From Isurus oxyrinchus (Eukaryota), in NCBI GenBank assembly GCA_026770705.1, contig JANJGN010000042.1, positions 6,138,001-6,202,000 on the forward strand: a stretch of DNA of 64,000 nt, written 5' to 3'. The notes under the pieces are model-generated. The model worked only from the letters and a program-made list of their open reading frames with translations, was not told the origin of the DNA and did no database searches. Positions 6,852 through 53,802 of this stretch are shown in pieces. Numbering within the stretch: position 1 is the stretch's first letter; each line of letters starts with the position of its first letter. The position numbers were made by a program, and so were the translations under genes.

Positions 6852-7172
6852 CTGATTGCCCTGAGTCAGACATTTCTGTCAATATATTGAACCCTCCGTT
6901 TGAAGAGATATGGGTTCAAAAGACAGCGACCATTGCTTGTGAAATCCTTTACAGTGATTTAGAAAGCGTCAGCGTGTCCTGGCAAGTGGATGGGAGAATG
7001 AGAACGGAAGGAGTTGAGACCCAGAATCCTGAGTGGAGTGGAAGCAATTCGGCCATCGTGAGCAAACTGACGGTCACTGCGGCAGAGTGGGACAGTGGGG
7101 TGGAATATGTCTGTCTTGTAGAAGGAAGTGAATTACCAACACCAAAGAGACGCTCAACCAGGAAATTAAAGG
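6852..7172 (+). CDS. IgNAR: IgNAR-type constant exon C4
   Basis: Acceptor tttctttccAG at 6850-6851, donor G|GTAAG at 7173, 321 nt. Translates (A)DCPESDISVNILNPPFEEIWVQKTATIACEILYSDLESVSVSWQV..GVETQNPEWSGS..EWDSGVEYVCLVEGSELPTP, with an extra N-terminal Cys at the position of the IgNAR inter-chain disulfide. Confidence 0.92.
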
Positions 7173-7617: not shown

Positions 7618-8000
7618 TTGGCACAATGATTAGTCCCAAAGTCTACATTCTGTCTCCGTCAGAGGATGAGATTGACACTGAGAATACGGCAACGCTGGTG
7701 TGTCTCGCCACCGGTTTTTATCCTGCTGAGATTTACATCGCTTGGATGGCCAATGACACCCTTCTGGATTCAGGTCATCCGAGCCAACTGGAGAGTGAGA
7801 AGGGAAATGGTTCCAGCTTCTTAGCCGGCAGATTGAGACTCACCGCAGCCGAGTGGAACACTGGCACCACTTACTCCTGTTTAGTGGGCCACCCGTCCCT
7901 CGAGAGGAATTTAATCCGAAGTATTAATAAATCCCACGGTAAACCTACTTTAGTTAATGTTTCGCTTCACCTAACTGACAGTGTTAAATCGTGTACATAA
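7618..8000 (+). CDS. IgNAR: IgNAR-type terminal constant exon C5 with secretory tailpiece; internal donor at 7938/7939 for the membrane form
   Basis: Acceptor ctctctttacAG at 7616-7617. Translates (V)GTMISPKVYILSPSEDEIDTENTATLVCLATGFYPAEIYIAWMANDTLLDSG..YSCLVGHPSLERNLIRSINKSH|GKPTLVNVSLHLTDSVKSCT*. G|GTAAA donor within the GK codons; tailpiece has an NVS sequon and penultimate Cys. Confidence 0.93.
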
Positions 8001-10090: not shown

Positions 10091-12815
10091 ATGTTGTTGT
10101 GCAATGAATGATCGATTTGTATAATTTCCAAAGATCGCATTCGGAGATACGCATTGATTTGAAATTATCCCCGTATTTTTATTTTTAATCATAGCGGACA
10201 TCATTAACATTTCCCTGGCTTCTGAATCAGAAGGTTGTGGATTAATCTCCTTTCCACAATTCTGGCACTTGATCGAGGCTCATATTGCAGTCGAACGGTG
10301 TGAAGGGTAGTGAAGTCTCAGTGCTGCTGTGTTTCATTTGAAAAGCATATTCTTGACCCGATCCGATAGTTCCGGCGCATGTTGAAGACTCCATGCAGAA
10401 TTGCAGGAGCAGTGATATCTTCCAGAGTCTGTTATCTCTATTATATCCAGACACAGCATTATATAGACTGGCTTCCTATTTGCTCCTTTAGTTTTTTTCG
10501 GGGTGTTATTTTAGTTTAACTTGCTGTGGACTCAAACACTAAAGTATTTAAATTTTTGAAAAAGTATTATTATTTCCCCATGAAGTATTTGGGAAATTCT
10601 GAATCAGTGAAAGGTTACCTATGAAGCAGGGCATGACTTTGTTGCCACCATCGTCAACCTTGCTCAGCTCACATAATTTAGCACACAATCTGTCCGTATG
10701 TCCAATGTGAAGCGGAGGCACCAAGAACTGATTTTTCAAGGAGAATCTCAGTCTGCAGTAAATCAACTGGTCGCATTCGTGTTGCCAATAGTTACCCTGT
10801 TTTTTCTTCCCCCTTGTTTACGTGCATCAGGCCGCTATTCATTGTGCCCTGTTGAAAAATACACTGAAATTAAAGGCGCAGATCAGAGAGTTGGTTGGTA
10901 GGTCTCCTTACCAGGCAGTCCACAAACATCCTCGGAATCTGAAAAAGACCCAATAAAGTTTCGATGGGCAAACAAAAACATGTCAACCAGGGATCATTGC
11001 ACAATTCACCTTCTGGACAGTGCATTCTGTTATACTGGGTTTACTAAGTGAGAAACATAGCAGGAGTACAATACTTCATCCATTGTTGATCTGAAATCTC
11101 AGCCATGTCATCGAAAAATGTATGCATGGCCATGTAGAGAATATATGCCCAGGTGACTGTATTGATGTACCTGCCCAGAGTTAAGCAAATGTTGCTGAGT
11201 CTCTGAACCTCCAGTAGTTGGAGCTGCTCTTTTATGTCTTGTGGGATCACTCCGTGCTGGAAAACATCTCGCTGAGTAAAGGAAGCAGTCTTCTAAAGGG
11301 TCTGACAGCTATCGATGTTGGATGCTCATAGAGTGGCAGTTATCCAGGAAAAGAAGGAGGCCATTCGGCCTATCTATCTGCCAAGTGTTTGGTGAAGCTG
11401 TGGATATTACACGTAATATCCCCTACTTGGCACACGTTCAAGTGCAATAGGTAAGTGAACACAACTTATATCCGTGTCCTGCACAATGTCAGTCTTTGAA
11501 TTATCTCGGTACTATTCAGTTGCGTTGACTCGAGTCCGGTTGAACAGCTTAAACAGCTGGTCTTACTCCAGTACAGATATTTCTGTAGATTGCCTGATCC
11601 TACAATGCTTCATCAGCTCATATATATGAAGGGCTCATAGCCTGGTAGAATTCAAGGTAGAGTAGGTATTGTAGGATCGACAATTTTTTCGAATTGTAAA
11701 ATTGGAAGGTCTTGTTTGGTTGTTTAGAAAACGAGGCTTGTCAATCATTCAACTCTCATAGAGGGGAAACAAGCATTTGATGAGAACGATGAATTTGATA
11801 AAATATGACAATGTTTATTCTTTTGGTGCAGGTACACATAAAATTACGATGCTTCTGCATTCACTTAAGCCACCTGCGCTCAATACAAATCGAAAAATCA
11901 GCCAGTGGGATAGCTTGCAGAATTAGAGAGTTAGTAGTGACACGTTCAGGGGATTGAGGGAATTGTTAACGTCACCTTTAACCAGGCGCTCACAGTTCTA
12001 CCCCACAGGGTAACCATCCCTATGGTGCTATTGTGACATAATGCTGGAGCTGCCATAGGGAAATATACGACACAATGTATTACAGAATTCACAGGACCTT
12101 AGTAACCGTGTAACCAGAGAATTGTAAACATAATATATCGCGATAATCATAGCAAAGATGTTGATACTGCAATGCTGACGTCATCAATAACAATCCAATC
12201 TGATGACATTGGGTAAAGAGTAATGCTGCTGTTCAGATTATACTGTCAATATATATGCACCTTAACCGGTTTAAATACTGTGAAATCATTTGTTTCTACC
12301 GACGAATGATCTTTGCCGTAAAATGTCAATACCTCCTGAGAGGCGAACATAAACTGTGCCGATGAGGTGCAGCTGAATCTTGAGTTGAAATGTGACTCCG
12401 CCCTCATTTGCCTGATGATCTCCTGGTTAGTGTAGCCTGTGAAATGCAAGTGATTCGAGCCTGAGTCCACCTTTCTATTCAGATCAGTGCCGAATTCGCC
12501 TTCTAAATAGATTTTTGATTATTTTGGTGTTAGCGGCTGCTAAAAGAGTAAAAATAAACTTCAGTCACAGGTGAATGATCATTTTTCATGGAACGGTGCA
12601 AATAATGCAAACATTATCATTTAAAATAACTCCTCTATCCAAGGTGCGCTGTATGACCTCGATTTTCACCCCCAACAATCATACCGTGTTTTCAGAAAAT
12701 TACTTCAATCGACTTAAGGTCTTTTCATGTGCCCTGCCAGCTGCCGCCTTTATGTTATATCGAGTCTATATTCAACCCGATCTCATTTATAACACAGTCC
12801 GTTTATTTATTCTAG

Positions 12816-12973
12816 AACTCCCTCAAATAATGGAAGGTATGGACGACCAATTAGTAGAGGAAGACGGATTAGAAAACTTCGATGAGGATGTAGGCACTGC
12901 ATCAACAGTAGTCGCTTTCGTCACTTTGTTCATTCTAAGTATGATATACAGCTCGTACGTGACAGTCCTTAAG
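12816..12973 (+). CDS. IgNAR: Ig heavy chain transmembrane exon TM1
   Basis: Acceptor tttatttattctAG at 12814-12815, phase 1, donor AAG|GTAAAG. Translates (E)LPQIMEGMDDQLVEEDGLENFDEDVGTASTVVAFVTLFILSMIYSSYVTVLK: an acidic spacer plus an antigen-receptor TM (CART-like T, F, S, YS, VT, K). Confidence 0.92.
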
Positions 12974-24814: not shown

Positions 24815-26926
24815 TGGTTACACCAGTTATTATTGACCATCCCTAATTGCCCTTGAAAGGTAGTGATGAGCCGCCTTAATGAAATGCTGTTGCCCACATG
24901 GTTTACGTGTAAAAACATTTATGTCAGGAAGGCAGTTAGAGGGCTTTGGGCCAGCACCATTGATAGCACGGCAACATATTTCCAAGTCAGGGTGGCGTGT
25001 GGTTTGGAGGGGAACTTGCAGTCGGTGGTGTTCCATTTCATCTACAACCTTTGTCCTTCAACGTGGTAGAGTCACGTGATTGCATCGTGCTGTCGATGGA
25101 GGCTTTGTGAGTTGCTGAAGTTCATTTTGTGTGGTACATACTGTGGTCACTATCTGTCTCTGACTGAGGGCCTTAATGTTTAAGGCGGTGGATAAGGTGC
25201 CATTGAAGGGGGCACCATTTCCTGGATATTGCTGCGTTTCCTGAGTGCTGTTGGAGCTGCATCTATCTGGGCAAGTGGACAATATTACATCACACTCTTG
25301 CCTTGTGCTTTGTAGATCGTGGACAGTTCCTGGGGGGTAATGAGGTGAGCTTTTCACTGCAGAGTTCCTAGTCTGTGAACTGCTCTTTTCGCCACATTAT
25401 TCACCTGGAAGGTACAGTTCAGGTTCTGTCCAATAGTAATCCCCACAATGTTGATATTGGGGGGAATCAGTGATAGTCATGTCATTGATTGTCAGATGGA
25501 AATGATCAGATTCTTTCATGCTGGAGATGACCATTGCCTGATAATGGTATCGAACGAATGTTAGTTTCAACTTATCAGCCCAAGTGTAGATTTTGTCCTA
25601 TTCTTGCTGCCCAAAGCCACGAGCTGCTCCAGTATCTATGGTGCGGATATTCATGTTGAACCTTGTACAATCATCACTAACATCCCCACTTCTGACCTTA
25701 TGATGGAAGGAAGGTCATTGATGAACCATGGGAAGATTTTTGGTCCGAGGACACTACCCCGAGGAACTCCTGCAGGAATATCCTAGGACCAAGATGACTG
25801 ACCTTGAGAAATGACAATGATCTTTTTTGCTAAGTATGACTCTCACCATTTTCCCATTGACGACAGTTATTTTAGGCTCCTTAATGGCACACCCTGTCAA
25901 ATGATGCCCTGACGTCACAGCAGTCATTCTCACCTCTTGAGTTCAATTCTGGTTCATATTTGGATCAAGACTGTAATGGCGTTCAGAGCTGAGTAGCGAT
26001 GATGTACCCCAAACTGAGCGTCAGCGAGCACCTCTGTATTACACTGTTGAAAGCACCTCCCATAAAATTGTTGATAACCAAGAGTAAACTGATGGCGTGG
26101 TAAAACTGGCTGTGTTGGTTTTGTCCCTTCTTTTTGTGCACACTCTAAAATAGGGCAATGTTCTACTTTGCAGGGTAAACGTCACTGTTCCAAATACACT
26201 GGAACAGCTTGGCTAAGGGTACAGCTTATTAAGCAGGAAAAGATTTCCGCACGATTGTTGGAATGTTGTCAGGGCCCGAAACCTTTTGCATTTTCGAGCG
26301 CCTTCTGCAGATTCTTCACGAAGTAGCGTGAATCCATTTGGCTGAAAACTGGCTCTTCTGATGATGCTGAGCTCAAGAGCAGGGAAATTGGGCATCCACT
26401 GGGCATTTCTAGCTGAATATGTTTGCAAATTATTCAGCATTGTATTTTGCACTTATGATTTGGGCCCACCGATTATTGGTGATGAGGATATTCATGAATT
26501 CTCATCGTCTTGTTAGTTGTTGACTTATCTAAGCACTTTTATGACTGGATGTGGCTGGACTGCAGACCTTCAATATGATACGTTGGTTGTGGGATCCCTT
26601 ACCTCTCTCGCTTGCATGCTGTTTCTGCTTTTTGGCAATCAAGTATCTTGTGTTCTCCCTTCGCCATGTTGACACCTCTACATTAGGCCTGCCTGATTCT
26701 GCCCAACTCATGCCCTCCTCCACTCTTCATTAAACCAGAGTGGATCCACTGATTTGACGGTAGTGGTGCAGTGGGCTATTTGCAGGGCCTCGAGATTATA
26801 CATTGCGGTTGAATAGAATTCCACTGCTGCTGATGGTCCACATTGCCTCATGACGCCCAGTTTGAAGTTTCAAGATGTGTTGGAAATCAATCCCAAAGAG
26901 CACGGTGGTAGGTGCCATACAACAGG
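24815..26926 (-). mobile_element. LINE family B (non-CR1 APE-RT LINE, clade unassigned), 3' part (paralog ~41600-43703)
   Basis: Paralog minus ORF KALETAKVSGPDNIPAIALKSCPPELAVPLAKLFQ..TGIHP and GVPRGS motif (ccccgaggaactcc); 3' end matches 4947-5132. Both copies break at ACAACAGG. Confidence 0.8.
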
Positions 26927-29590
26927 AATATCTCCGCTAAGTGTTTCTCAAGATAGAATTCAGATTAGCAGTCACTCTCTGATATGAAACTTAGGTGTGC
27001 TTGTTAATAGGCATAGTTAACAGAAACGCCTATGTCACTTCCAGTTATCAGTCAGCCAACTGAAAGTTGCTACCTGAATAGATGTTATTTACTGGAGCAG
27101 ACAGCTGACTTAGCAGTTGCATCTTGGTTTGCGCCATCTGCTCTCTCGAGAGAATTATACAGTGTGAGATGACAAAGTGAGATGACAAGGCTTGCCTGCG
27201 ACGAGGAACAAAAGCCAATTTGGGAATTTGGTTTAAGTGAGAAATCGGTGCAAAGGAAGAAGGAGGTGCACTTTTTGTACCATTCTGGGGCCTTCAGTAG
27301 CAGGTAGGTTTTTTTCTGCCAAAAATCTATGGGGGATAACTTGCTACTAGTTTAGCTGTATCAATTAGTATATAATTGATTTGTTCATTAAATAAGATTA
27401 TTCAGCCATGACAGTCATACTGGCGTGCTTTAATTCAAAAACATCAGAATCTGTGGAATGATTGCAATCCCAAAAAACTAAATCTGTGGCAAGAGATTTC
27501 GCCTCTGATCTATTGAGCAATGTTTTGGTTTCTGCGACACACAGATACCACAACCAAGAAGATTGGTAACACAATTATGTGGGCTCTTTTATTTCATGGG
27601 GTGAAACCACATGCACCAATCTCTGCAAGTGCGCTGACAGGTCCTGTCCCTCGAGCTGCTCATATCTTCAGCGTGATGATTAATTGAGCATGTACATCGC
27701 AAACTCTCTGATAGTGTACAGTAGTTATAGATAGGCTCTTTAAAGGCATTCGACCGCAAGCAGAAGCCAGAGACCCAGACTTTGTGTAGCGTCTGGGAGG
27801 GGGATCGCTATCCAGACATTGTGTTCCAGGAACCTCTCTCAGCCCTTTAGGCCAAGTAGAAAGTTAGAGTCTTGCAATTATCAGAGACAGCGGATTATGA
27901 CTGTGAGATAGGCAGGGATCAGTATGCTGTAGATACTGATGGTGGGTTCAGAGCCCTTGAATTTGCCCAAGAGACAGATGTGCTTGTGGCCTACTTGAAT
28001 GAGCAGAAAGACGGCATTCATGGGGAAGCGGCACAAGCACCCATTAAAGATAGGATTGTTCAATTGGCACAGGCTGTGCTGAAACATGGCTGTTGGCAGT
28101 GTCATGGTGAACTGTATAACTAGGGTTTCTGTTACTTCGTCAAATGTAGGGTGGGAGCAGAGTCTGTGTGAAGGGAGGTATAGAAATATGAAGATAAAAG
28201 TCAAGGCAATGGAACAAACTAAAAACCAGCAGAGCAGATCAGGAAGGTGCAAAGAGTTGAACAGTAATCCTGCATCAGAAAGTGAAAAAATAACATTCAG
28301 GCAATAGTCGCCGACATTAAACTAAATTATCCTTATCAGGATACAGAAATACACTCACAATACAATAAATCGATGAACTATTGTCACAAATCGAGATAAA
28401 CAACTAACAGCTATTCTTCAATACAGAAACAGAGCTGCACGGTGACTAAGGTTGTAGTATAAGTATTCCAGGCTACGCAATATGTTTCAAATGGAGACTG
28501 AATTGCCAAGCGGTACTGATAGTAAATGATGGCATAAGGACCTTAGTGAGCAAGGGCCTTGGATCAGAAGATCATGCAGTGGAATCTGGTTAGGTGAATA
28601 TTTTGGACAAAGAGAGTCAGTAAACCCTGGTGGGAGTAGGTTATACATCCACTAGGAGAACCTAACAGTTGCAAAGAGCATTAAACAAGAAATTATTGGA
28701 ACCTGTCACAAAGGCTATTTAATAAAACTGGGGAATTTTAATCCTCATAAAAATAAGGCATAACAAATTGACAAGGGTCGTCAAGAAGATGATTATTTCT
28801 TGGAACAATGCTTCGCGAAAAAAGATCCACTGGGAGCTGCTGATCGTTATGCATTTAACTTCCACGTTAAGCTTGAGAGCGACATATTCTACCAAACAAT
28901 AACATTCAATTTAAATAAAACCAATTATTTAGGAATGAGGAGAGGACTGAGTAAGTGTGGTTGGGGTAAACGAATTACAGTTATGGTAGTAAATAAACAG
29001 TGGGAACAATTTCAAGGAACAATTCATATTTTTGGACAAAATTCATTCGATTGTAAAACCAAAAACTCAACAAGAAAAATCACATCCGAGTATTACTCAG
29101 GAAGTAAAGATGGTATCAGATTAAAAAGAAAAACGTATAATGTTGCAAAGAGTGGGAGCAAGACTGAGGATTAAGATTGTATTACAAAGAATGAAAAGAT
29201 CAGCCAAAAGTTGCTAAAAAGGGGGGAAAGCATTCAATTGCAGAGCACACTAGACAGGAGCATAAAACAGATTGTAAAAACTTTCACTAGTTAAAACATG
29301 AATGTAACTGAAGTAAACACTTACTAGTGTCAGGGGAAATTGTTACCGGGAATGACGAGATGGCAGGGAAATTGAACAGATAGGTGGTGAGTACCTTCAC
29401 AATGGAAATTACAAGATGCTCACCAGGAATATAAGTTAACATAAGTGCTTATAAGAGTGAATAAATTAAGGTAATTTATATCAACAGAAAAATTACTGAA
29501 GACAAAAAAAAACGGACATCTGCCAAGTTCCCAGGGCCTGATGGCATTTAACTTGGGCGCCTAAAAGTGCCAGAGACAGTGGATTCCCTG
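26927..29590 (+). mobile_element. Degenerate CR1 5' region (5' UTR/ORF1 zinc-finger-like remnant near 27410-27520; endonuclease to tether region 28330-29590)
   Basis: aactaaatctgtggcaag (IC.KC-like), gtattccaggctac (IPGY), GAADRYAFNF..NLNKTNYLGMRRGL..W and ccagggcctgatggc (PGPDG). Confidence 0.55.
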
Positions 29591-29599
29591 GCATATACT

Positions 29600-30928
29600 T
29601 TTCATTCACAGGATGTGGGTTTCGCTGGCTTGGCCAGCATTTATTGTCCATTCCTAATAGCCCTTGAGCTGGTGAGCGGCTTTGCAGCCATGTGGTGTAG
29701 GTGGACCCACAGCTTATGTGCTTGGAAGGTGCTATCGAAGGAGTCCTGTTGCATTCCTGCAGTGCATCTAGTAGATGATGCACACAGATGCTACTGTGCT
29801 GTAGGGGGTACATGTTCGCACATGTGATGCCAATCAAGTGGGCGGGTTTGCCTGGATGTTCTCCAGCTTCTTGAGTGCTGTGAGAGCTGCACACATGCAG
29901 GCAAGTGGAGAGTATCCAATGGCACTCCTGAGTTGTGCTTTGTAGATTGGTGGACAGACTTTGCGGAGTCAGGAGGTGAGATTCTCGTCCCAGGATTCCT
30001 AGCCTGTGGCCTGATCTTGTAGTCAAAGTATTTATATGCCAGTTCAATTTCGGGTCAATGTTAACCCCCAGGATGTTGATACCAGGGGGATTCTGCGATA
30101 GTAATGTCATTGGTAATGATTGGTGGCTAGATTCTCCCTTGTTGCAGAGGGACATAGCTTGTCATTTGAGTAGCAGGATTGTTAGTTGCTACTTGTCAGT
30201 CCAAAACAGGTTACGGTACAGGTCTTGCTGCATTTGGACACGAACTGCTTCAGCATCAGAGGAGTCACGAATTGTGTATTTACATTGTGGAATCATCAGC
30301 AAACACCCCCACCTCTGACCTTATGATGAAAGGAAGGTCATTGATGAAACAGCTGAAGGTGGTTGGGCCGAGGTCACTATCCTGAGCAACCCAGTGTTGT
30401 AGATGAACTAGCACATAGCTTTGCTAGTGGCCTGGCAAGTTTTGGAGTACGAGTCATCAGTACCATTGACGGAATATTTTCCTGGACCGTCGCATTTGTA
30501 CAATTCTAGGCCTTCAGCCTTTTCTTGAAATCACGTGAAGTGAATCAAATTGGCTGAAGACTGGCATCTGTGATTCTGGGGACGTACAGATGAGTCCAAG
30601 GTGGCTCATCCACTGGGCAACTCTGGGTGATGATTGCAGCAAATGCTCCAGCAGTATCTATTGCACTGATGTGCTGGGCTCCTCCATCATTGAGGATGGG
30701 AATGTTTTTGTAACCTCCTCCTTCAGTGAGTTGTTTAATTGTCCACCGTGATTCACAACTGCAAGTGGCAGAACTGATCCATTGGTTGCGGGATCGCTTA
30801 GCTCTGCCTATCACTTACTGATTATGCTGTTTGGCATGCAAGCAGTCCTGTGTTATAGCTCCCCCAGGTTGACACCTCTTTTTTAGGTGTGCCTGGTTCT
30901 GCTACTGACAAGACCTTCTAAATTCTTC
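29600..30928 (-). mobile_element. LINE family B fragment abutting the start of duplicate copy 2
   Basis: Minus ORFs INILGVNIDPKLNWHINTL..SGHRLGILGR and WTIKQLTEGGGYKNIPILNDGGAQHISA; 3' end ggatgtgggtttcgctggcttggccagcattt. Confidence 0.8.
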
Positions 30929-31383
30929 TGTGACTCCACCCCATTTTCCTGATGATCTGTTAGGTTATTTAGCCTGTGAACTGCAAGTGATTCGAGCCTG
31001 AGTCCACCCTTCTATTCAGATAGGGGCCGAGTGAACCTTCTGAATAGATTTTTGATTATTTTGGTGTTATCGGCTGCTAAAGGAGAAAACCTAAACTTCA
31101 ATCACATGGGATTGATCATTTTTCACGGAAACGTGCAAATGATGCACACATTATCATTTAAAATCACTCCTATGACCTAGGTACCCTGTATGACACCCAA
31201 TGTCACCACCCAACAATCATACCCATGTTTTTGGAAAATTACATTAATCGACTTAAGGTATTTTCATGTTCCTTTACTTTGACTTCCAATGCAGCATACC
31301 CCTGCCAGCTGCCTCCTTTGTGTTATATCTGGTCTATATTCAACCTGATCTCATTTATAACACACTCCATTTATTTATTCTAG

Positions 31384-31542
31384 AACTCCCTCAAATAATG
31401 GAAGGACTGGAAGACCAATTGGTAGAGGAAGACGGATTAAAAAAACTTCGACGAGTATTTAGGCACGGCATCAACAGTAGTCGCTTTCGTCACTTTGTTC
31501 ATTCTAAGTACGATATACAGCTCATATGTGACAGGCCTTAAG
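31384..31542 (+). pseudogene. Duplicated TM1 exon with a +1 frameshift in an A7 run
   Basis: Acceptor intact (ttattctAG), 159 nt vs 158 nt. TTA GAA AAC has become TTA AAA AAA C. Donor is AAG|GTCAAG. 13 substitutions relative to TM1 by my count (6 synonymous, 7 non-synonymous). Confidence 0.85.
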
Positions 31543-34500
31543 GTCAAGATGGCTCGCAGTAGTATCGGGAAAATGTGTAAATTTATTCAACAGTTGAATT
31601 TCTTACCGAGATATAGCTAAGGTACAGATGAAGAACTAAACATTTCAATATTTGCATAATTTAAATCTATCCCACAGCGTTAGGTTGAGTTTCAATAGTA
31701 ATTTCCATCTATATATTTTGTAAGCCTCCCTATTTTGAAGATTGGGGAGAAGGCTTAATGCATAGTAATATTATTGCCACATTAAGCAGAAGAATATGTC
31801 AATGATGAAAAAAAAGATGCATTGTTTCTAGATTCTGGATCTTTAGGTAATGACCTGAACCAGTTGGTGATGTGATGGCAAATCCCTTGAAGCATTGACC
31901 ATGAGGTTTTTGAAGTCACGAGAAGTTTTCTCTGAGAGAAAGCAGAGCGCACAAGCAAAGCGTTTGCATGCAAACATGGATCACTGTAAAGAGATGAAGA
32001 AATTATTGATTGCAGATTGATGGGAGATGGATCAACGTGAATCGAATGGAAAATCATTTATTATGATTGCTAGGAGGTGGAAAACAGTGCGGGTTGAGGA
32101 AAGCACTAGCTCACAAGGATGTAAGGTTAATCACTGTGAAATGATTAGGAAAGCGTACCCTACGAAATGATGGGAAATGGATCATTGTGGAGACACGAAG
32201 AAAGCAGTGACTAGGGAAGAATAGGGGGTGATGTGTCCGTTGGAGAGATGAAAACAAACATTTACTATGGAAGGTTACCAAACAGGAGCATTGTTAATAG
32301 GTGAGAAGGGGATTGACGGAAGGAATGGAGAAAATGTTAGCTTTTAAATTGATCAGCAAATGATACAAGATGAAGGTCGGTTGGCCCAAAAATCCACAAT
32401 CATAGAAAAATAAACTATAGATCTGGGCTTCAATTTTAGCAAATGACAACAGTTAAGGTTAGGATTAAACCGAAGAGTAAATATTATGTCAAGAAGAAGA
32501 CAAAGGGAAGTTTGTGGCGCTCACCATTCTCCATCATTCATTCAGATTGTGGCTGATCTGTGCTTTAGCGAATTAAGCACATCTTACCTTCATGATTATT
32601 AATATGCCTAACTAACAAAGCTCTGTCAAACGCAGTTGTAAGCATTTAAATTGGCATCCAACCTCCACATTTAATTTCCTTTTGGGCTGAGGGGAGAGTC
32701 TTAGATGGCATCCAGCCAATGTGCAAAGAAGTGTTCCCTCGATTCGTCCCTGAAATACCAAACTCTACTTTTAAGGTTTTTTTCGTGTTTTTGTCATATG
32801 GTAGATTTTTGTTTTTAGTTTATTACTATATTAACAGCCATATCAAGTAATTATTTAAGTAACTCAATTAGATCACCCTGTAATCGTCCAGGCAACACAA
32901 TCCGAAGGTGAAGATCATGCTGGCATAATTTTAACCATTTTGTGACCGGTGTTGTTCTGGTGAATCTCTGTTCCATTCCTGCAAGCACTTCCTGATGTGG
33001 GCTTCGCAGAAGTGAACAAAGTAACGAGAGCTTTGTACAACTGAGACAAGGTATCTACCCCTTTGGATTCCAACTACCCCATGCCCAGGGTTAAAGCCAA
33101 CTATCCATTTGCTTCTTTAATTATTTGTATTCCTTTCCCACTAACTTTAAGGATTTCCGTAGTTGGAAAGCTAATTATTCGAGATGTTCTACAGTTTTTA
33201 TCGTCTCATAGTTAGAAAATAACAATCGTCTATCTTCCTTAATTTCAGACTAGATGACCTCACGTTTCCATAGGGAACTTTACATATCGTTGTGCAGAGC
33301 CTACCCCAATCCCGCATTGATTTAATTTTAGGAAGACCACTTGCGACTTTCTACTCTTTGCTGTGCTGCTTAAATTATCATTGTCAGCAAATTGAGGTGT
33401 ACGGCTCTCTATTCCGACTTCTCAAACCCTTGACAAGCATAGCAGATAAAGTACATCCCAATTCAGAGGCCCCCCTCCCAGAGACAAATAGCTGGCAATT
33501 CTTGTGCTGGAAGCACTTTCCATTATTTACTAAAATCTACTCATAATCGTTTCTATTCCAACATATTAGGTTTCCCAGTGCCAACACATAACTGAATGTT
33601 TTGTTCCTGGTCCCATACCAGTAATTCTCATTGCTTCTGTCGCTAAGCCTTTTCATCCTGAAGGTTAGTGCTGAGAATTGGAGACAAGACTGATCTATGG
33701 TTCCTGGAATATTCCCCACCTCTGGCGCGAGGGGAGCTGACGTGTAGTTCAATTGCATAATGTTATCTTTTTTTGGACAGGGTACGTTATTGATAAGCTT
33801 CCATTCTCCTGTAACTAGGCCCATATCAAAGCAGAACTGCAACTTCGTGTCCAGACTATCTGCAATTGTAATTCATACTTCACTAATCCGTTTCTGATGC
33901 ATCCCATCCAACTGGGTGAATTTTTCACCTTGTGCACTGGCAGAACATTAACTTCTTCCCTTGCATCTGTGCTTCTCCCCTGTTTTTATTTTCTTTCCAG
34001 TGCCACCTTCTGACTGTGACATTTCCAGCATTAATTTCTTCCCTGAAGACTTTTGCAAAGTATTAACTTAGTCCCTACGTCGTACTCCCTCTACCTCCAG
34101 AATAGAGTTAACTTTCGCTTTCTAATTGACTCAGCCTTATTTTGGCTACATGTTTTCTCTTTACATGTTTAGAACAGAGGTTTAGACTCACCTTTCCATT
34201 ACCTGATAATCTATTGCCAAATGCTCTTTGTCACTTTTACATGATCTCTTATCACTCCCTTTGTCTGCTTTATGAAAATAAACTATCGCCACTCAGAGAG
34301 CCTCCTCTTGTTCATTTAGTGATTTGCTTAGTCTTTCACGTCAATCCATCTGGAGCACGTCACCTTTCCATTCACCAAAATTAACGCCACTTCCGTTGAA
34401 TATTTTCACATATGATTAGTTCTTCTACAAATCCATATGTACTTTAAACATAATGATATTATCATTATTTTCCATATTATCTCCGTCTGCTACATGCCTC

Positions 34501-37500
34501 ACATAATTCCTTAGAACTAGATACGACACTGCTTCCTTCCTTGATTGGGGGTAAAACACAGAGACCATGAGAACTATCTTATCCACATTGCACGAGTGAC
34601 TCCATGTCTTTTTGTGTGATACAGTTTCATTCAGCCTCGTATAATAAATGATGCTCCCTATTGCCAATACGCTGAATTTCTAGCAAATTTCTGTGATGTT
34701 CCTGTAGTTTTGCTCCTCCATTTCCTCCCCACTATGTTGTGGTCCATTTTATACACCTAGCACCTAATAATGTTTCTGCTATTCATCAGTTTTACTGAAA
34801 CAAATTCCGTGTTCGAACTCTCAAGTACACCAACACTTTCTAATGCTTAGAAAGTATATTACGTAAATGTTCCACCTTCGCTCCTTTATTTTCCTTCCTC
34901 ATCTTGCCTCAAAATGTTGTTGACATGATTACAAAATTGACATGCCTTCCCTCACATCCCCTAGGTCTCTGTTACTGCAGTTACAACATAATGCTACGTG
35001 GTCTCTCGTACCTACAGCCCAATGATGTTAATTAACATTTACCAGGAATTAACACAAATGGACACAATGTGATCTTGGATTGTTTTGCAATTCTCCGTGC
35101 ACCAAACTATCTAATTCGGAGCTGTTCCTCAATTAAATCTAATTTGTTTCTTTACGCTCTCTGCAACTTTTCTCTGCCCTCAAGTTCTTCATCTGTTGGG
35201 TGGGTGGTGTTGGGGGTGGGGGGTGGTGGTGGTGGGGTAGTGGAGTTGGATGTGCCTTCTCTGCCATACTCATTTAAAGCCTCCACCACGATTTAATTAA
35301 TATTCCTGCGATGGATTGATTCCAGTCCTCTTTGTATGCAATGCGTCCACATTCTTCAGGTCCGAACAACCTCTCAAATGGTCCCATTGGCCCCATATTT
35401 TGAAGCATCTTCTGAACAGTTTCGTCATTCGTACATTAACCTGGATTATTTTGCTGCTCTTGCACTAACTGTTCTGTAGCACTGGGGATAATCGGGAGAT
35501 TGCCAACAGGAAGGATGTGCTCTAGGTGCTGAAATTATTTCGGTAGAATCTCAATCCTTTCCCTACCTGTATCATTGGTTGAAACATGGACCGTGACTTT
35601 TGGTCATTTTTCTTTCCTTTTCAAAATCTTCTTCATCTACTCAGTGATGTAACTGACGTTGGCACAATTGAGCTAAAGCGAAACTTATGTTGGTGGTGGC
35701 AGAAGCGCTGGCCAATTCCCCGGACTGTCAAGTTCCCTAAAGAACTGCAATCCTCCACTTCATGATTCACTGACTTGTTTAAATCTGGCCCCTAGTGACG
35801 TGGATGATTACTAGACAGCTCTACTCAAAGCCCTGCAAACCGATTTGAATATGTAACAATCCTGGAGGATTCCTGCACTGTGAGCATTTCCTTAACCTAT
35901 CGGATAACCAACCACTTACTAACCTCCTGAACACTAGATAGACAGGATGACAACCTCCTTGGATTAATGCACTTCAGGAGATTCTCAGGCCCACAGGAAC
36001 TCCAGATGCTCCTCGATTAGTATACATGAGTTGTTTGATTTCCTTTGCACCTTACTCATGTTTATTATTTTATTCATGTTGGAAACTTGATGTTTATTTA
36101 TTAATTTTGATCCGGGAAATTTTGCTGTCCTCTGCCGTGGGACCGTAAACCGAAGTCCCGTTTGCTTCCTCAGACAGAAGCAAACGATCCTGTGACATTA
36201 TTTCGAAGAAGGACAGGGAAGTTCTACCCGAAGCCCTGTTAAATATTTATCACTCAATCAACATCATGAAAAGGAGATTATCAGGTCATTATCACATTGA
36301 GCTTGCGGAGTTTGTTTTGTGGAAATCGACATACATTACAAAAGTGATTACAGCTCAGGAGGATTTCACTGGACAGAAAGGGCGCTGGACGTTCTGATGT
36401 GGTGAATAGTGCTACATAAATGCAATTCTTCCTTTTTTATTAATATTTTTCTCTCTCTTATCTATAATGATTTTCCAACTGTATCTATCCACTTATTTAG
36501 CTATCATTTTGAATAAAGACGTATTCCATGGTTGCACTTGATGTTGGACCCCTCTGTATAGTCCAGTAGGAGAGTGACGCATTGATACAGAGTTGGAGAC
36601 AGCGGACATGTCTCAAATTAAACAAGTTGCTAAACATCAAATTCTGAATAATTACACATTCAAATGTGAACATTTTTTTTGTTTCTGTCTCACACTTGAT
36701 ATATGTCACTCATCTCTCATTTTTTCCATCTCTCTTTCCGACTAACCATCTCTGTACCTGTCACCTATCTGTTTATATCTGTATGTACTTAATAATATTC
36801 CTCTCATGTACACACACATACACACACACACACCAGAAAATCTGTAGCATTGCACAGGGAGCATTGGGAGCAAGTATTGCTTTCACATGAGGAAAGCAAA
36901 GGATAATTAGAGCAAGGATATTATTCAGTTCACATTCCAAAGCCATTTTCTCAGTCCTTATTTCCCCCATGGCATTAAAAATTCCTAACAGCACATTTGC
37001 AATGTAGATTGCGAACATTCGCTTATTAGGTAGTGATTACAAACAGAAACTAACAACAATGTTTTTTCAGCATGCCCGTCCTCTCTGACAATGCTGTCGA
37101 TCACAATCTATACTTCAACCAACTGCACTTCTCTCCTCCCAAAACTGCAGTAGGTTTAACCATTTAGCTACATTATTGTTCATGTAACATCAACATATTT
37201 TCTAAACCTTACGTCATGATCCATGATATTAAAATGGAGAATGCTTATACTTACTCACCTTGTGAGACCATACTGCAAAGCAATTCACTGGAATTAGAAG
37301 GAACAGAGCAGAGTATATATACAATCACAGACAATACTAACCGAGAGGGTGCAATAGACTTTGAACAGAACATGGCATTACAATAGAAAGCAGTTTAATT
37401 TAGCTTGCCAGTAAAAGAATGACAATTCTTGTACACGCAAAAACCATGTCAGGACTGACTTTGAAGCATAGGGATAGTCAAGGGTAATAATGTGGAAATG

Positions 37501-38044
37501 GGAAAGTTCTGAACAGATACATGAGAACAAAAGAATTTGTTGTCCAGGTCAATATTTCATTGAAAGCTAGCGGATGATCAAAATACTAATGGGATGGCGT
37601 TTTTCTGGTCCAAACATATTGAGTAAGCAGCAATTTTTAAAGAAACACTATCGTTCAAATTTCATTTGGAATGCAATGTTCCGATCATAGGAACTGCAGA
37701 TGGACTACGTTAGGTGTGCTAGGAGTCAAGCAATGATTCACGAGTATCGTCATATTTGTTTCTGAAAATTGTATAATTATTGTGGGGTATTTAACATCCA
37801 TAACAAATAATTGACTTAAAGATCGAGAAGACACACAAGTGATATTTTCCATACTTAGGCTTCTGAATGTTGATGGCGGGGGTAATTCCCAAACCCAGAA
37901 TGATTGTTATCTTTCACGATAGTTATACATAATATTGTTGTTATTGTTGTTGTTGTATACCCCGGACGTTACAGTTGAACTGAACATCATTTTTCTCATT
38001 GCGGAACGCACTGGGTTTTAATGCTATGATTTTTTTCACTGCAG

Positions 38045-38053
38045 GTGAAATAG
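38045..38053 (+). pseudogene. Duplicated TM2 exon (intact VK-stop)
   Basis: atgatttttttcactgcAG|GTG AAA TAG, identical coding part to 21241-21249; downstream AATAAA retained at 38329-38334. Confidence 0.8.
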
Positions 38054-41000
38054 CAGCTCTTTGACCAGAGGGCATTTCAGCTTTATATTCAAAGCTTGGT
38101 GGCAAAGTCCTCTTGGGGACAGATTGTGTGACTCTATCAGCATGAGCAGCTGCTCCGTTACACCACTTCACCTTGTGGTTGCTGCATAGCCTCGCCAATC
38201 TGTGGCAACTCTGCTTAATTTACTTCTATTAGTTCATAAATTAACACTTTTTTTCTTAAGAAGCAGCGCTAAATAGAATTGTGCATCATTACAACAACCG
38301 AGTATGTTCAGCAAATCCCACTTAATCAAATAAAATATATTGAGAAGAAAACATTGAATGCCGCTATGTGTTAGTACTACTTTTGAAATAGTAGGATTGT
38401 TTCTTGTCTCAGTCATTTTTTAAATATTTTATGACAATTTGAATTTGAGAATTAACAATAAAAACGCCCTTACCACGTCCGTGAGCTCGCAGACAACCCA
38501 CCAGGCTTGTCGAACCTGTCCTTGTCCTAGGATGAGTTAAGGCTCGCCAGCTGTTACAGAAGGTCCAAGCATTCCCTTTAGGAAATGGAAACTCACATGT
38601 GAATAATCCCAAAAATACATTCTCGAAACAAGATCTGCAGTAATAGTAAGCACTCATCTGGTCACCACTTATATTGATAATCTCATTTTGTTAAGGAAAG
38701 ACTTTATCTACTGGCATTTGTTCCAGAATTGTTAATAGACCATACTTGAATGTGGAAATTATTTAATTAGTGCTGCGTAGCTGAGCAAATTTTCAAAACG
38801 TTTTGTGCATATCTCATATACAGCTCCCAGAGGAGCACAGCATTGCATCTTCGCTTACCAGCATCATGCAAGTAACATAGACATTGATTTCTGGCACAGT
38901 CGCACGGGCTTACATCCTTTTAGAGACCCAATGGAAACTAAAGGCATACCTGACTGCTTGTTAGCTACATAGATTCCTGAAACACATGTTTAAAAACAAA
39001 ACCCTTGTTTGTGGACTACTCTGGAGGCTTGTTGCTCTGTGATCCCTGATGCCTCCAAATCAATTCCACTGAAGATCTATTTCTAGCCAATGTTTTAACA
39101 CCTTTAAAGAAAATCCGTTAAGGACACAAGAAGGGAGAACCAATATAACAGGATCACAAAATCATAATGACAAAGAAGGAGGCCTTTCGGCCCATCGTGT
39201 CTGCACTGACTCCCCAAATGAGCATAACGACCTAGTGTCAGTCTCCTGCCTTTTCCCCGTACCCATGCGCATTGTTTCTATTCAAAACAAATATCCAATG
39301 CCTTCTTGAACCTCCATTGAAACTGCCTCCTCTATAATACCAGGTAGCACCTTCCAGACCCAAACCACTATTGCATGAAAGTGTTTTCTCTCACGTCACA
39401 GTTGCTTCATTGTCCTCTCGTTCTTTATCCTTTAATGACCAGCAACAGCTTCTCCTTATCTAATCTGTTCAGGTTCCTCGTGATTTTGAACATCTCTATT
39501 AAATCTCCTCTTAGCCTTCATCTCTCCAAGGAGAACAGTCTGAACCTCTTCAATCCAACCACATAGCTGAAGATTCTCATCCGTGGAACCATTCTTGTAA
39601 ACCTCCTCTGCACTCTCTCCAATGTGTTTACATCCTTCCTATAATGTTGCGCCAAGAACTGTACATAATGCTCCAGCTGAGGCCTCGCGAGTGTCATATA
39701 TAAAATCAGCTAACCTCCGTGCTCTTGTACATTATACCCCTATTAGCAAAACCCAGTATACCGTTTGCTTCATTAACTTCTCTCTCCACCCTGTCACATT
39801 CAACTATCTATGCTCATATACACCCCAGGCCTTTCTGCTTCTGCACCCTGTTTCCAAGTTTATCCCTTATTTAGACTGTCTGTAAATAGTCATCCTATAA
39901 AATACAACACTTCACACTTCTCCGCATTGAACTTCATCTGCCACCTACCTCCCCAGTCCATCAACTTGGCTATGTCCTCTTGAAGTTCTGCACTGTCCTC
40001 CTCGCTGTTTACAACACTCCCAAGCTGAGTATCATCCGCAAGCATTCAAATTCACCCCTGCACACCAAGATCTGAATAATTAAAATATATCAGGACAAGC
40101 AAAGGTCCCAGTGCCGATCCCCGGGGAACTCCACTGCAAACCTCCCTCCAGCTGGTACAATATCAATTGACCATTAGCCTCTGCCTCCTATTTTTTTCAC
40201 ATAATTTTGCATCGACGTTGTTATTGTCCATTTTATTCCATGGGCAATAACTTTTCTCACATGTCTGTTGCTTAGCACTGTATCAAATGCCTTTTGAAAG
40301 TCCATACACACCACTTAAACAGCATTACCCTCATTGACCTTTTCTGTCGCCTCTTCAGATAACTCCAGCAAGTTCGTTAAACACGATTTCCCCCTGAGAA
40401 ATCCATGCTAGCTCTTGTTTATCAACCATTATTTTTGCATGTGACTGCTAATTCCATCTGTAATAATTTTTCTTTCCAGAATCTTGCCCACCGCTTAAGT
40501 TAAGCTGCCTCGTCTGTAATTACTGGGATTATTCTTACCACATTTTTTGAACAGGGGCGTAATGCTTGCAATTCCACAGCCTTTTCCTTAAAACATCGTT
40601 GCCCAAATCTAGAAAGTGAATTTTCCTAATTATACTATTTCAGATACAAACACTGATATTTGATGTTCTGAACAATTACGACGTAAACTGAGTGAAAATT
40701 ATAACATATACGGACAGGTATTTTTTTGCATTCAGTTAGATCATGGTTGATCTGCACCTTAACGTTGTTGTTCCACATTGCCTCAAGGTCCTTCGTTTAC
40801 TTTATCTGTAATGGCAATATTTGCAGTGATTTGTCTAAATGAAATGTTAGAAACATTGGGAACTTACGCCCGTTGCTAGTCATGTGGAGATTGCATGTTC
40901 TCAACAATACATTTAATATTCATCTTTGTTTTATATGTTGCTACAGTGTTATTATTTAGTCATTATTTTATACTCTGTACACGCAAAGGTTTGGAATACG

Positions 41001-44000
41001 TGTGATGCTGAAATTCACCGTTGTTTTTATTTTTTTAAAAAACGAGTGTTCCATCTTTATTTCTAACATTTGTTTAGCTCATACAATTTGTCCAAGTTTC
41101 TGATTGCTCCAATTATTAGGTTAATGCAACTCACCTGTAAATATCATTAATATAAAACATCAAAAATAGAAATAACGAGAGATGCAATTCAATTGAACAA
41201 TGAGCTTATTAACCCCCACTTATTATTGCAGCTATTTAATTGATTAGAACAACATTATCTTGGATGAATGAAGAGAACTTGGGAAATAATCTGGAAAATT
41301 TATAAGGTCTAATTATTCAGCAACATATCAGAAATTTAAACAAGGTCCACAAATATTCTTTAGGTAATGAGTATTCACTCTTAGCAGCTATGTTCTGATA
41401 ATTAATTTGTTGAATTAACAATCATCAATTTACTGAAGCGAGGCCTATGATTCAATATAGTTAGATTTATTAACTGCATTCTGTGGGAACATCACTTGAG
41501 ATGAATAGGCCGTTATGCAACAAGGAATGAGAGCTTAGTCCTGAACTTGGAGCAGCTGCGAATTATTGATTTATTAATGGCAAGTTGGCTTCTCTGGGTT
41601 AAGCAAGTTATTATTGACTATCCCTAATTGCCCTTGAAAGCTGGTGATGCGCCGCTTTAATGAAATGCCATTGCCCACTTGGTGTATGTGCAAAAACATT
41701 TATGTCAGGAAGGCAGTTAGAGGGCTTTGGCCCAGCAGCATGGATGCAACAGCAACATATTTCCAAGTCAGGGTGGCGTGTGGTTTGGAGGGTAACTTGC
41801 AATCGGTGGTGTTCCATTTCATCTACAGACTTTGTCCTTCAAGGTGGCAGAGGTCAAGGTTTTGTTTGCTCTCGATGGACGCTTCGTGAATTGCTGAAGT
41901 TCATTTTGTGTTGTATATGCTGCTGTCACTACCTGTCGCTGATGGAGGGAGTAAATGTTTAAGAGGGTGAATAAGTTGCGATTGAAGGGGGCTCCATTTC
42001 CTGATGTTATGGAGTTTCGTGAGTGCTGTTGGAGCTGCATTTATCTGGGCAGTGGACAATATTCCATCACACTCCTGTCTTGTGCCTTGTAGATCGTGGA
42101 CAGTTCTTGGTGGGGGTGAGGTGAGTTTCTCACTGCAGAGTTCCTAACCTGTGAACTGCTCTTTTCGCCAAATTATTTATCTGGATGGTACAGTTCAGAT
42201 TCTCTCCAATAGTAATCCCCACAATGTTGATATTGGGCGTGTCAGTGATAGTAATGTCATTGATTCTCAGACGGAAATGATTAGATTCTCTCATATTGGA
42301 GATGACCATTGCCTAATAATCGTATCAAACGAATGTTAGTTTCAAATTATCAGCCCAAGTCTAGATGTTGTCCTATTCTTGCTGCCCAAGGCCAGGAGCT
42401 GCTTCATTATCTGTGGTGCGGATATTCTTGTTTAACCTTGTACAATCAATAGCGAACATCCCCACTTCTGACCTGATGATGGAAGGATGGTCATTGATGA
42501 AGCAGCGGAAGATTTATGGGCCGAGATCACTACCCCGAGGAACTCCTGCAGGAATATCCTGGGACTAAGATGTTTGACCTTCAAAAACCACAATGATCTT
42601 CTTTTGTGCTAAGTATGACTCTTACCAGTTTCCCATTGACTCCAGTTTTTTGAGGGCTCCTTAATGCCACACTCGGTCAAAGGATGCCCTGATGTCAACA
42701 GCAGTTATTCTCATCTCACCTCTTTTGTTCAATTCTGGTTCATATTTGGTTCTAGAATGCAATGGCGTTCAGAGCTGAGTAGCGATGATGCAACACAGAC
42801 TGAGCGTCAATGAACACCTCTTTGTGACACTGTTGAAAACACCTCCCATCACTTTGTTGATAACCAAGAGTAAACTGATGGTGGGGTAATTGGCCGTGTT
42901 GGATTTGTCACTTCTTTTGTGCACATGCTAAAAATAGGAAATGTTCTACTTTTAGGGGTGTATGCCAGTGTTCCAAATACACTGGAACAGCTTGGCTAGG
43001 GGTACAGCTAATTCCGGAGGACAAGACTTCAGTGCAATTGCTGGAATGTTGTCAGGGCCCGAAACCTTTGCAGTTTCTAGAGCCTTCAGCAGCTTTCTCA
43101 TGAAGTGGGGTGAATCAAATTGGCTGAAGACTCGCTCTTCTGATGCTGCTGACCTCAAGAGCAGGCAGAGTTCAACCATCCACTGAGCATTTCTGACTGA
43201 AGATTGTTGCAAATGATTCGGCTTTGTCTTTTGCACTGATGTTCTGGGCTCGCCTGTTATTGGTGATGAGGGTATTTATGGATTCTCATCGTCTTGTTAA
43301 TTGTTGACTTATCCAAGCCCTTTTTTTGACTGGATGTGGCAGGACTGCAGACCTTCAATATGACATGTTGGTTGCACGATTACTTACTTCTCTCGATCGC
43401 ATGCTGTTTCTGCTCTTTGGCAATCAAGTTCTCTATTCACCATGTTGACACCTCAATTTTAGGCCTGCCTGATTCTGCCAAAGCCATGCCCACCTCAACT
43501 CTTTGTTCAACGAGTTTGGATCCACTGATTTGATGGTAGTGGTGTAGGGGGTTATTTGCTGGGCCCCGAGGTTATAGATTGCGGTTGAATAGATATCCAC
43601 TGTTGGTGATGGTCCACATTGCCTCATAGACTGTCCAGTTTAAAGTTGCAAGATGTATTGGAAATCAATCCCAATAACACGGTGATAGGTGCCATACAAC
43701 AGGAATCTCTCTGGTAAGTGTTTCACAAGATAGAATTTAGATTAGAAGTCACTGTCTGGTATGAAACCTAGGCATGCTAGTTAAGAAGCCTAGTTAACAG
43801 AAACGGCTATGTCACTTTCAGTTAACAGTCAGCCAACTGAATGTTGCTACCCGAATAGATGTTATTTACCAAAGCAGAAAGCTGACTTAGCATTTGCATT
43901 TTGGTTTGAGCCATCTGCTCTCTCTCTTTCGAGAAGTATACAGAGTGAGACGACAAAGTCAGTTCACAAGGCTTTCCTGCAACGAGGAAAAAAAGCCAAT

Positions 44001-44040
44001 TTGGAAATTTGGTGTAAGTGGGAAATCAGTGCAAAGGGAG

Positions 44041-45560
44041 AAAATAAATAAATAAATATGTTTTTTTCTTTTTCTCTTTTTATAATGGAAATAGGTGGGA
44101 AAAGGAAAATCTATATAATTTATTGGAAAAAAAGAAAAGCAAGGGGGAAAGAGAAAGGGGGTGGGGATGGGGGAGGGAGCTCACGATCTAAAGTTGTTGA
44201 ATTGAATATTCAGTCCGGATGGCTGTAAGGTGCCTAGTCGGAAGATGAGGTGCTGTTCCTCGAGTTTGCGTTGGGCTTCACTGGAACACTGCAGCAAGCC
44301 AAGGACAGACATGTGGGCAAGAGAGCGGGGTGGAGTGTTAAAATGGCAAGCGACAGGGAGGTTTGGGTCATTCTTGCGGACAGACCGCAGGTGTTCTGCA
44401 AAGTGGTCACCCAGTTTACGTTCATCCTCCGCCATTTCCGCTAACTCCAGCATAATGCCACCACCAAACACATCTTCCCTTCACCCCCCCCCCGTATCGG
44501 CATTCCGTAGAGATCGCTCCCTCCGGGACACCCTGGTCCACTCCTCCATCACCCCCTACTCCTCAACCCCCTCCTATGGCACCACCCCATGCCCACGCAA
44601 AAGATGCAATACCTGCCCCTTCACTTCCTCTCTCCTCACCGTTCAAGGACCAAAACACTCCTTTCAACTGAAGCAGCATTTCACTTGCATTTCCCCCAAC
44701 TTAGTCTACTGCATTCGTTGCTCCCAATGTGGTCTCCTCTACATTGGAGAGACCAAACGTAAACTGGGAGACCGCTTTGCAGAACACCTGCGGTCTGTCC
44801 GCAAGAATGACCCAAACCTCCCTGTCGCTTGCCATTTTAACACTCCACCCTGCTCTCTTGCCCACGTGTCTGTCCTTGGCTTGCTGCATTGTTCCAGTGA
44901 AGCCCAACGCAAACTGGAGGAATAACACCTCATCTTCCGACTAGGCACTTTACAGCCTTCCGGACTGAATATTGAATTCAACAACTTTCGGTCGTGAGCT
45001 CCCTCCCCCATCCCCATCCCCTTTCTGTTTCCCCCTTCCTTTTCTTTTTTTTTCCAATAAATTATGCAGATTTTCCTTTTCCCACCTATTTCCATTATAG
45101 AAGGAGAAAAAGAAAAAAAAATATTTATTTATTTATTTTATATTTCTTTTACATCTTTTATGCTCCCCCCACTCCCACTAGAGCTGTACCTTGAGTGCCC
45201 TACCATCCATTCTTAATTAGCACATTCGTTTAGATAATATCACCAACTTTAACTTTAACACCTATGTGTTCTTTTGTACTATTGTTGTTGACATCTTTTG
45301 ATGATCTGCTTCTATCACTGCTTGTTTGTCCCTACAACCACACCCCCACTCCACCTCTCTCTCTCTCCGCCCCTCACACACACACCTTAAACCAACTTAT
45401 ATTTCAACTCTTTCTTGGACTCGAACTCAAGTTCTGTCGAAGGGTCATGAGGACTCGAAACGTCAACGCTTTTCTTCTCCGCCGATGCTGCCAGACCTGC
45501 TGAGTTTTTCCAGGTAATTCTGTTTTTGTTTCTGTTTTGGATTTCCAGGATCCGCATTTT
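44041..45560 (+). mobile_element. Penelope-like retroelement (GIY-YIG endonuclease 3' fragment) with an inverted 5' duplication
   Basis: Translates CPRKRCNTC..FTCISPNLVYCIRCSQCGLLYIGETKRKLGDRFAEHLRSVRKND..VACHFN..EQHLIFRLGTLQPSGLNI.F. Inverted arms at 44041-44422 and 44756-45139. Confidence 0.92.
45431..45467 (+). ncRNA. Minimal type I hammerhead-ribozyme-like motif in the Penelope terminal region (A6 position variant)
   Basis: GTT-CTGTCGA-A-GGGTC-atgag-GACTC-GAA-ACGT-C-AAC: stem I GTT/AAC, core CUGuCGA, stem II GGGTC/GACTC, GAAA, palindromic ACGT stem/loop III, GUC cleavage triplet. Confidence 0.6.
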
Positions 45561-45719
45561 TTTTTTTGGTTTTTATCCCAGTTAAACAGAGGCAGATCCG
45601 TGCTGGCGGGTTAAGGTTTCAAATCAGCCTGAGCCAAAGCCACGCAGGGAGGATAGACCCAAGTGAAATAAATGAAACCACACATACCACAAGTAAGCAA
45701 GTTATTAGGGCCGTGCAAA

Positions 45720-51735: not shown

Positions 51736-51739
51736 ATAG

Positions 51740-53791: not shown

Positions 53792-53802
53792 AAAAGGAGG
53801 GA
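53792..53802 (+). other. Polypurine tract of the ERV
   Basis: aaaaggaggga one base before the TGTAAG LTR start at 53804. Confidence 0.75.

Follow-up and report, generated by a model that had tools for sequence, protein, structure and literature searches.

Why should an antibody gene carry two membrane-anchor cassettes one behind the other, and does the second of them do anything? The question is raised by a 64,000-nucleotide stretch of the Isurus oxyrinchus genome (GenBank assembly GCA_026770705.1, contig JANJGN010000042.1, positions 6,138,001 to 6,202,000 of the forward strand), the whole of which we call the window. In the messenger RNA of a membrane immunoglobulin, the last constant (C) exon is spliced to two membrane exons, TM1 and TM2, and the transcript ends at the poly(A) site of TM2. 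A first-pass annotation, made from the sequence of the window, had proposed that a downstream repeat of TM1 and TM2 (copy 2) provides a second, alternative membrane cassette, or else is the stump of a second gene cluster. We think it very probable that copy 2 is neither of these, and is a broken duplicate of the IgNAR membrane anchor, likely inert today and likely left by a single old event in which 18.5 kb of an ancestral cluster was duplicated head to tail.

Judged by its sequence, the host gene is an IgNAR gene, as had been supposed in the first-pass annotation. A VNAR-type V segment lies about 14.4 kb upstream of the window, and in PDB its 30 best matches are all entries for shark VNARs or for nanobodies (the top one with E 5e-39). 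Between this segment and the window there is a J-like GAGTVLTV motif (12.8 kb before the window start) and a C1 exon (0.4 kb upstream of it), and the window itself contains four further C exons (2683-8000), of which C3 has a whole-length match to a novel antigen receptor structure (Table 1). The cluster thus has the J, the five C exons and the cysteine-ending secretory tail of IgNAR; a strict pattern for the recombination signals of D segments gave no match between V and J. IgNAR membrane forms are described, in an excerpt of one study, as having three or five C domains (PMC5192425), and in the present gene splicing to TM1 is expected to start from a GT inside C5, directly behind 7938. All four C exons in the window are upstream of the TM copies, and no Ig C motif was found within the window either between the copies or downstream of them, so the second cassette does lack C exons, as originally stated.

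Contigs from six of the 21 sequencing runs listed were compared with the cassettes (X1, X4, X5 and X9 for copy 1; X4, X9, X8 and X17 for copy 2), and the transcript evidence consists of low-depth contigs from runs that are only guessed to be RNA (12 were guessed to be so and none is recorded as RNA). The joint between C3 and C4 was present in contigs of four of four runs, and the other joints of the C region are given in Table 1.

Table 1. Coordinates of the features of the IgNAR cluster and its duplicated membrane-anchor region, in positions of the window.
Feature	Position	Strand	Remarks
IgNAR C2 exon	2683..2988	+	Open C1-set domain; spliced to C3 in 3/4 runs at the exact joint
IgNAR C3 exon	3076..3393	+	Whole-length single-domain match to PDB 4q9c 'Novel antigen receptor', E 9e-46
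IgNAR C4 exon	6852..7172	+	Spliced to C5 in 4/4 runs
IgNAR C5 exon and run-on secretory tail	7618..8000	+	Tail ends SCT-stop; secreted form in contigs of 4/4 runs
Duplication unit 1	12391..30928	+	18.5 kb: end of C5-TM1 intron, TM1, long intron, TM2, 3' flank
TM1 copy 1 (A)	12816..12973	+	158 nt, open, hydrophobic helix; working anchor exon
Retroelement insertion, CR1-like in appearance	~13546..15248	+	About 1.7 kb in the copy 1 intron; absent from copy 2
TM2 copy 1	21241..21536	+	VK-stop 21241-21249; ATTAAA/AATAAA at 21526/21531; X4 contig covers 21239-21699 with 7 other letters
Head-to-tail junction	30928..30929	+	Unit 1 ends and the homologue of 12391 follows
Duplication unit 2	30929..44042	+	3' end cut short in the window cluster
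TM1 copy 2 (B)	31384..31542	+	159 nt, pseudo-exon; +1 frameshift near 31441; donor GTCAAG
TM2 copy 2	38045..38462	+	Acceptor, GTGAAATAG (VK-stop) 38045-38053, AATAAA at 38329 and 38457; intact
Presumed Penelope-like element	44041..45567	.	380-bp inverted arms (44041-44422, 44756-45139), GIY-YIG remnant; at the cut point of unit 2

Self-BLAST of the window matched 12391-13545, 15249-19861 and 20046-27261 to 30929-44042 on the same strand at 85-86% identity, which confirms the first-pass description of a block of TM1, long intron, TM2 and AATAAA repeated directly downstream. The two copies differ by 12-14%, with an identity of 88.2% over a 3.6-kb piece of the intron when gap columns are left out. 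The duplicated unit begins 425 bp upstream of TM1, and we set its limits at 12391-30928, with copy 2 lying head to tail behind it, because copy 2 in the C42-1.1, C126 and C38-12.7 clusters extends through the homologue of 27261-30928 before it runs into unique flank. The unduplicated continuation is found where unit 2 ends in those three clusters, and also at a single-cassette locus on C26. In the window cluster, the last 3.7 kb of unit 2 (the 27261-30928 homologue) is gone, at the edge of an element that we take to be Penelope-like from its anatomy, and whose GIY-YIG remnant matches PF01541 (E 7.8e-5). Farther downstream, 45577-54373 appears to be a decayed LTR-element-like stretch; its 53804-54373 portion recurs ahead of this stretch in other clusters, like a terminal repeat, and is missing from that place in the window.

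A junction of the 30928|30929 type is present in all 11 cassette pairs, on four contigs, and both types of copy occur in the DNA of another species, which upholds the view that copy 2 is neither a haplotype nor an assembly duplicate. The claim that a CR1 element had entered only one copy holds for the insertion, which is restricted to copy 1 (and is absent even from copy 1 of the C26-0.70 and C38-13.3 clusters), but the name refers to its appearance, a short tandem 3' tail, and the element can be called CR1-like at most.

Both acceptors and the VK-stop exon of copy 2 had been described as intact, and they are, but a frameshift and the GTCAAG donor of TM1 had been overlooked. TM1 copy 2 has one additional A in an A-run near 31441, and the hydrophobic helix is therefore lost from the spliced frame, in which the best 19-residue Kyte-Doolittle mean is -0.34, compared with 2.13 for copy 1. 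The donor reads GTCAAG in copy 2 of the window as against GTAAAG, and GTCAAG is found in 9/11 second copies. Across the genome, first copies of TM1 are invariably open and 158 nt long (11/11), whereas second copies are invariably broken before the helix (11/11), by three independent lesions: eight share the additional A, the copy on C126 is interrupted by a stop at codon 24, and the two copies of the C26-0.70/C38-13.3 clusters share one at codon 5. Not one second copy retains an in-frame TM1 with a hydrophobic helix. A homopolymer error in the assembly was considered as the source of the frameshift and rejected because the second copies carry three different lesions, with eight copies on three contigs sharing the frameshift and the other three having different stops. 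TM1 had no match in Pfam.

A TM1 search of the genome (G000) gave 23 full matches, namely 11 first copies, a second copy 18.3-18.6 kb farther along for each of the 11, and one orphan on C26, as well as two further 30-nt side pieces. IgNAR-type C5 was found at 11 loci (89-100% identity), ten of which have a cassette pair; the eleventh (C26, 3.25 Mb) has a single cassette with TM1 deleted, and one cassette pair (C42, 6.23 Mb) has no C5. Several of the IgNAR loci are 99.4-99.9% alike, and because some of these may be haplotype copies, we count three lineages of independent evidence: a young main group (8 pairs), C126 (1 pair) and C26-0.70/C38-13.3 (2 pairs).

Two of the loci in this survey are unusual in themselves. 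At C26:3,196,700-3,280,000 (L031-L039) there is a broken IgNAR cluster with a frameshifted C5, an inversion, loss of TM1 and a single cassette, and 37 kb before it lies an orphan open TM1 of an older paralog. At C42:6,224,047-6,300,481 (L026, L001, L027, L002, L028-L030, L061, L062), a younger tandem repeat of 76.4 kb copies the window from 9605 onward; it starts in the C5-TM1 intron and contains no C exons, and thus places four TM cassettes behind a single C5. Its identity is 99.97% near TM1 and decreases to about 98% at the far end, and it could be either a true repeat with recent exchange or an assembly artefact.

The rate of change in TM1 differs sharply between the two copies. Across lineages, first-copy TM1 differs at 6/158 positions (3.8%) against 499/3579 in the intron (13.9%; p=6.6e-5), whereas second-copy TM1 differs at 23/158 (14.6%) against 541/3588 (15.1%; p=1), with a ratio of changed to silent codons of 12:5. 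The shallower comparison with C126 gave 3/158 in the exon and 231/3595 in the intron for first copies (p=0.017), and 12/158 and 183/3629 for second copies (p=0.19; changed to silent codons 8:3); the four exon/intron tests have branches in common and so are not independent. Between copies 1 and 2 of the window, the exon differs at 13/158 and the intron at 424/3587 (p=0.2), an intermediate divergence that is as expected with one constrained branch. Purifying selection on TM1 copy 2 is thus not apparent, since its exon is as divergent as its intron while first-copy exons change more slowly, and in a neutral simulation the chance of a stop or frameshift was 50-65% per lineage of comparable length. 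The genomic data thus show that copy 2 has decayed at the intron rate and has multiplied with the cluster.

The tree of the 3.6-kb intron piece (23 rows) adds a complication that is not predicted by one duplication event without later exchange. In it the main and C126 lineages, with both of their copies, form one group, from which the copies of C26-0.70/C38-13.3 are separated (100/100); a short tree around TM1, with nine of the 23 available rows, left the base unresolved. Two independent duplications, which the intron tree might suggest, were rejected as the junction is identical in both lineages. We infer instead that copies 1 and 2 later exchanged sequence, because the tree does not split by copy despite the one shared junction. 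The window's own second copy has a copy-1 letter in TM1 (31470-31490) and differs at several sites in TM2 (38045-38250) from the other six young second copies, which hints at a mosaic history through exchange between clusters.

Other features of a membrane cassette have been kept in copy 2, namely AG and GT splice ends, a VK-stop TM2 and a poly(A) signal. Acceptor, VK-stop and poly(A) hexamer are retained in 10/10 second copies that still have TM2, the exon being wholly deleted in the C38-12.7 cluster (1/11), and none of the 15 core bases of splice sites and VK-stop has changed in any second copy that retains them. A rough, post hoc estimate of the neutral chance of this is 0.04 for the 15 core bases and 0.14 for the nine coding bases. 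In the C26-0.70 and C38-13.3 clusters (L019, L017), TM2 copy 1 is VV-stop and copy 2 is VK-stop.

The contigs show that copy 1 is spliced. Its TM1-TM2 joint was seen in two of four runs (X4 and X9); the single X4 contig across it has 7 other letters on copy 1 but, when aligned to copy 2 with a less strict threshold, 43 and a gap, and both X9 contigs over TM1, and at 38322-38323, have copy-1 letters. As low-depth contigs drop rare forms, use of copy 1 is shown by these data and silence of copy 2 is not. No contig joining C5 or C3 to TM1 of either copy was found among the rows listed, a blank that was not counted as evidence; nor did the thin contig data contain a join of TM1 copy 1 to TM2 copy 2, and the zero cover of X8 contigs over both copy-2 TM exons likewise carries no weight. 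X9 yielded a copy-2-like intron contig at 34187-34860 (depth 20; 36 other letters, compared with 70 for copy 1). Its source may be either DNA or read-through RNA, as contigs of the same run cover 29/30 bins of the copy-1 region, introns included.

Evidence on the age of the duplication comes from X17, a DNA-sized run of another species, in which two classes of pieces are present at a depth of 105-139. Compared with the window's copy 2, one class is as different as first copies are, and the other is about half as different or less (for example 9/207 as against 25-30). Because X17 therefore holds both types of copy, the duplication is likely to predate the split from that species. The extra base is missing from the X17 contig that resembles copy 2 at TM1, the rest of whose frame is unreadable.

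The history that best accounts for these observations would begin with a single 18.5-kb head-to-tail duplication in the ancestral cluster, by which copy 2 was created. Membrane IgNAR transcripts would run from C5 (or C3) to the first TM1 and the first TM2, with the first poly(A) site as their end point; copy 2 would lie beyond the end of the mRNA, presumably never spliced, and would hence have escaped selection. In three lineages it would then have been disabled independently, by a frameshift or by a stop, while being carried along with every copying of the whole V-D-J-C cluster and while some exchange took place between copies 1 and 2.

How do other explanations compare with this one? The alternative membrane cassette of the first-pass annotation is not supported. 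A second working anchor would agree with the intact splice dinucleotides and TM2, and with the copy-2-like TM1 without an extra base in the X17 species, but TM1 copy 2 is broken in every pair by the three lesions, and the exon, being unconstrained, evolves like an intron; unless reads should contradict all three lesions, the idea is refuted for this assembly; it could at most apply in other species, and we find it extremely improbable. The suggested stump of a second cluster, having lost everything from V to C, is not supported either. A duplication of a whole cluster followed by one deletion would look the same at the junction, and the C-less 76-kb repeat just downstream on C42 offers a younger parallel, but two events would be needed where a single head-to-tail junction suffices, and no C remnant precedes copy 2. 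An assembly join is rejected because the junction falls at the same base in all pairs on the four contigs, and X17, moreover, has both types at similar depth; together, stump and join are highly improbable. The broken duplicate remains our preferred reading, and it leaves two ways in which part of copy 2 might nevertheless be used. TM1 copy 2 could be dead while TM2 copy 2 acts as an alternative last exon (12973>38045), supplying a new 3' UTR or, where a cluster's own TM2 is VV, a KVK tail. The bases kept in TM2, the VV-stop form of copy 1 in 2/11 clusters and the copy-2-like intron contig of X9 all speak for such use; we nonetheless consider it distinctly unlikely, as the transcript would have to bypass the first TM2 and its poly(A) site and then continue for a further 17 kb, one cluster has dispensed with the exon, and the spliced contigs seen join copy 1 to copy 1.

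The other use would be at TM1. If C5 or C3 were joined to TM1 copy 2 with its frameshift, the product would be a secreted IgNAR with a basic tail of 51 residues ending near a cysteine, like the CH4-M2' form of human IgE. The shifted frame has no hydrophobic stretch and its stop coincides with the final exon codon, where nonsense-mediated decay would be avoided according to the usual 50-nt rule, and in 6/11 second copies the frame is open to this exon-end stop. However, the shifted frame of copy 1 has the same stop, which is thus a by-product, and the frame has not been kept: two of the eight frameshifted copies (about 1% apart) stop earlier, and the other three second copies stop early in the original frame. 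Such a form would also require TM1 copy 1 to be skipped, and no contig supports it; we rate it as very unlikely. That any part of copy 2 is in use seems, all told, improbable.

Doubled membrane exons are also found outside IgNAR. Genes on C88 appear to be IgW-like, from their extra C domains and their 64-70% likeness to IgNAR C5, and in three of five such loci (C88:531,002-537,036, L064 and L065; and L073-L078) TM1 is duplicated over 3.4 kb. All eight TM1 exons found in the IgW-like loci are open and have intact splice ends; a transcript with both would be out of frame, which means that the two are used alternatively or that one of them is skipped. No convincing TM2 exon turned up when the C88 genes were searched with a pattern. 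The gene at C88:531,002-537,036 also has ten C-type domains, at C88:514,400-530,700 (L080, L079, L064), with one exon pair present three times in tandem. It could be argued that copy 2 of IgNAR is kept in nearly all clusters because it is used, with TM2 as a distal last exon or the frameshifted TM1 as a secretory tail, and that the double TM1 of the C88 genes represents the same path towards alternative Ig tails at a less advanced stage. We regard this broader proposal as unlikely; if copy 2 were used, it would mean that the tail of an antibody can be changed by duplicating membrane exons alone.

As a broken duplicate, copy 2 brings no new biology but can serve as a marker. From the junction and the three lesions, the steps by which IgNAR clusters expanded in this lineage can be dated and put in order. 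Stray TM1 copies are also an annotation trap, since they may enter false gene models. A protein search with TM1 gave one match among 21 candidates, a basking-shark gene model (P0001) in which a receptor-like segment and a stray TM1-like exon are fused to a complete IgNAR chain. This fusion is probably an annotation error, and it suggests that the basking shark has additional TM1 copies close to IgNAR; we have not counted it as support because its TM1-like exon resembles the orphan at 3.20 Mb on C26 as much as it does a second copy.

In the titles, abstract openings and text passages covered, there is no description of a duplicated IgNAR membrane cassette, although a prior report, above all for IgW, may exist; the corresponding parts of PMC4279169, PMC12227049 and PMC11767079 add nothing further on the subject. 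The cluster resembles those of bamboo and nurse sharks, as outlined in excerpts of the respective papers, in its order of V, J, five C exons, a secretory tail and then a membrane tail (PMC8692893, PMC11641339, PMC5192425). The bamboo-shark clusters are described there as having one Sec and one Tm tail (PMC8692893), whereas here a second, broken cassette stands at 10/11 C5 loci; the passages of the nurse-shark locus paper make no mention of membrane exons (PMC11641339). In human IgE, a membrane exon read in another frame is reported to give the secreted CH4-M2' form, whose tail lacks a hydrophobic segment (PMC2119292). Both RNA and protein were detected in that case and the cassette is the only one of the gene, whereas the shifted frame described here stems from a mutated duplicate, is not conserved among the copies and finds no support in transcripts.

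Closer parallels are offered by the dead remnant membrane exons of rabbit IgD (PMC5568218) and the orphan, pseudogenised IGHZ-TM1 of the killifish Austrofundulus (10.1101/752063), as these are presented in excerpts of the two reports. In both, as in Isurus oxyrinchus, TM exons with a broken frame and without working C exons are found either downstream of a live Ig gene or separate from one. Copy 2 shares with such orphan membrane exons a broken TM1 without C exons of its own but is not the remnant of a lost C gene: the rabbit and killifish exons are leftovers of a lost isotype gene, whereas copy 2 is a partial tandem copy of the 3' end of a live gene that has multiplied with its cluster. It belongs, in our view, with the pseudogenised Ig membrane exons, as an old and most likely inert member of that group that is widespread in the IgNAR clusters of this genome.
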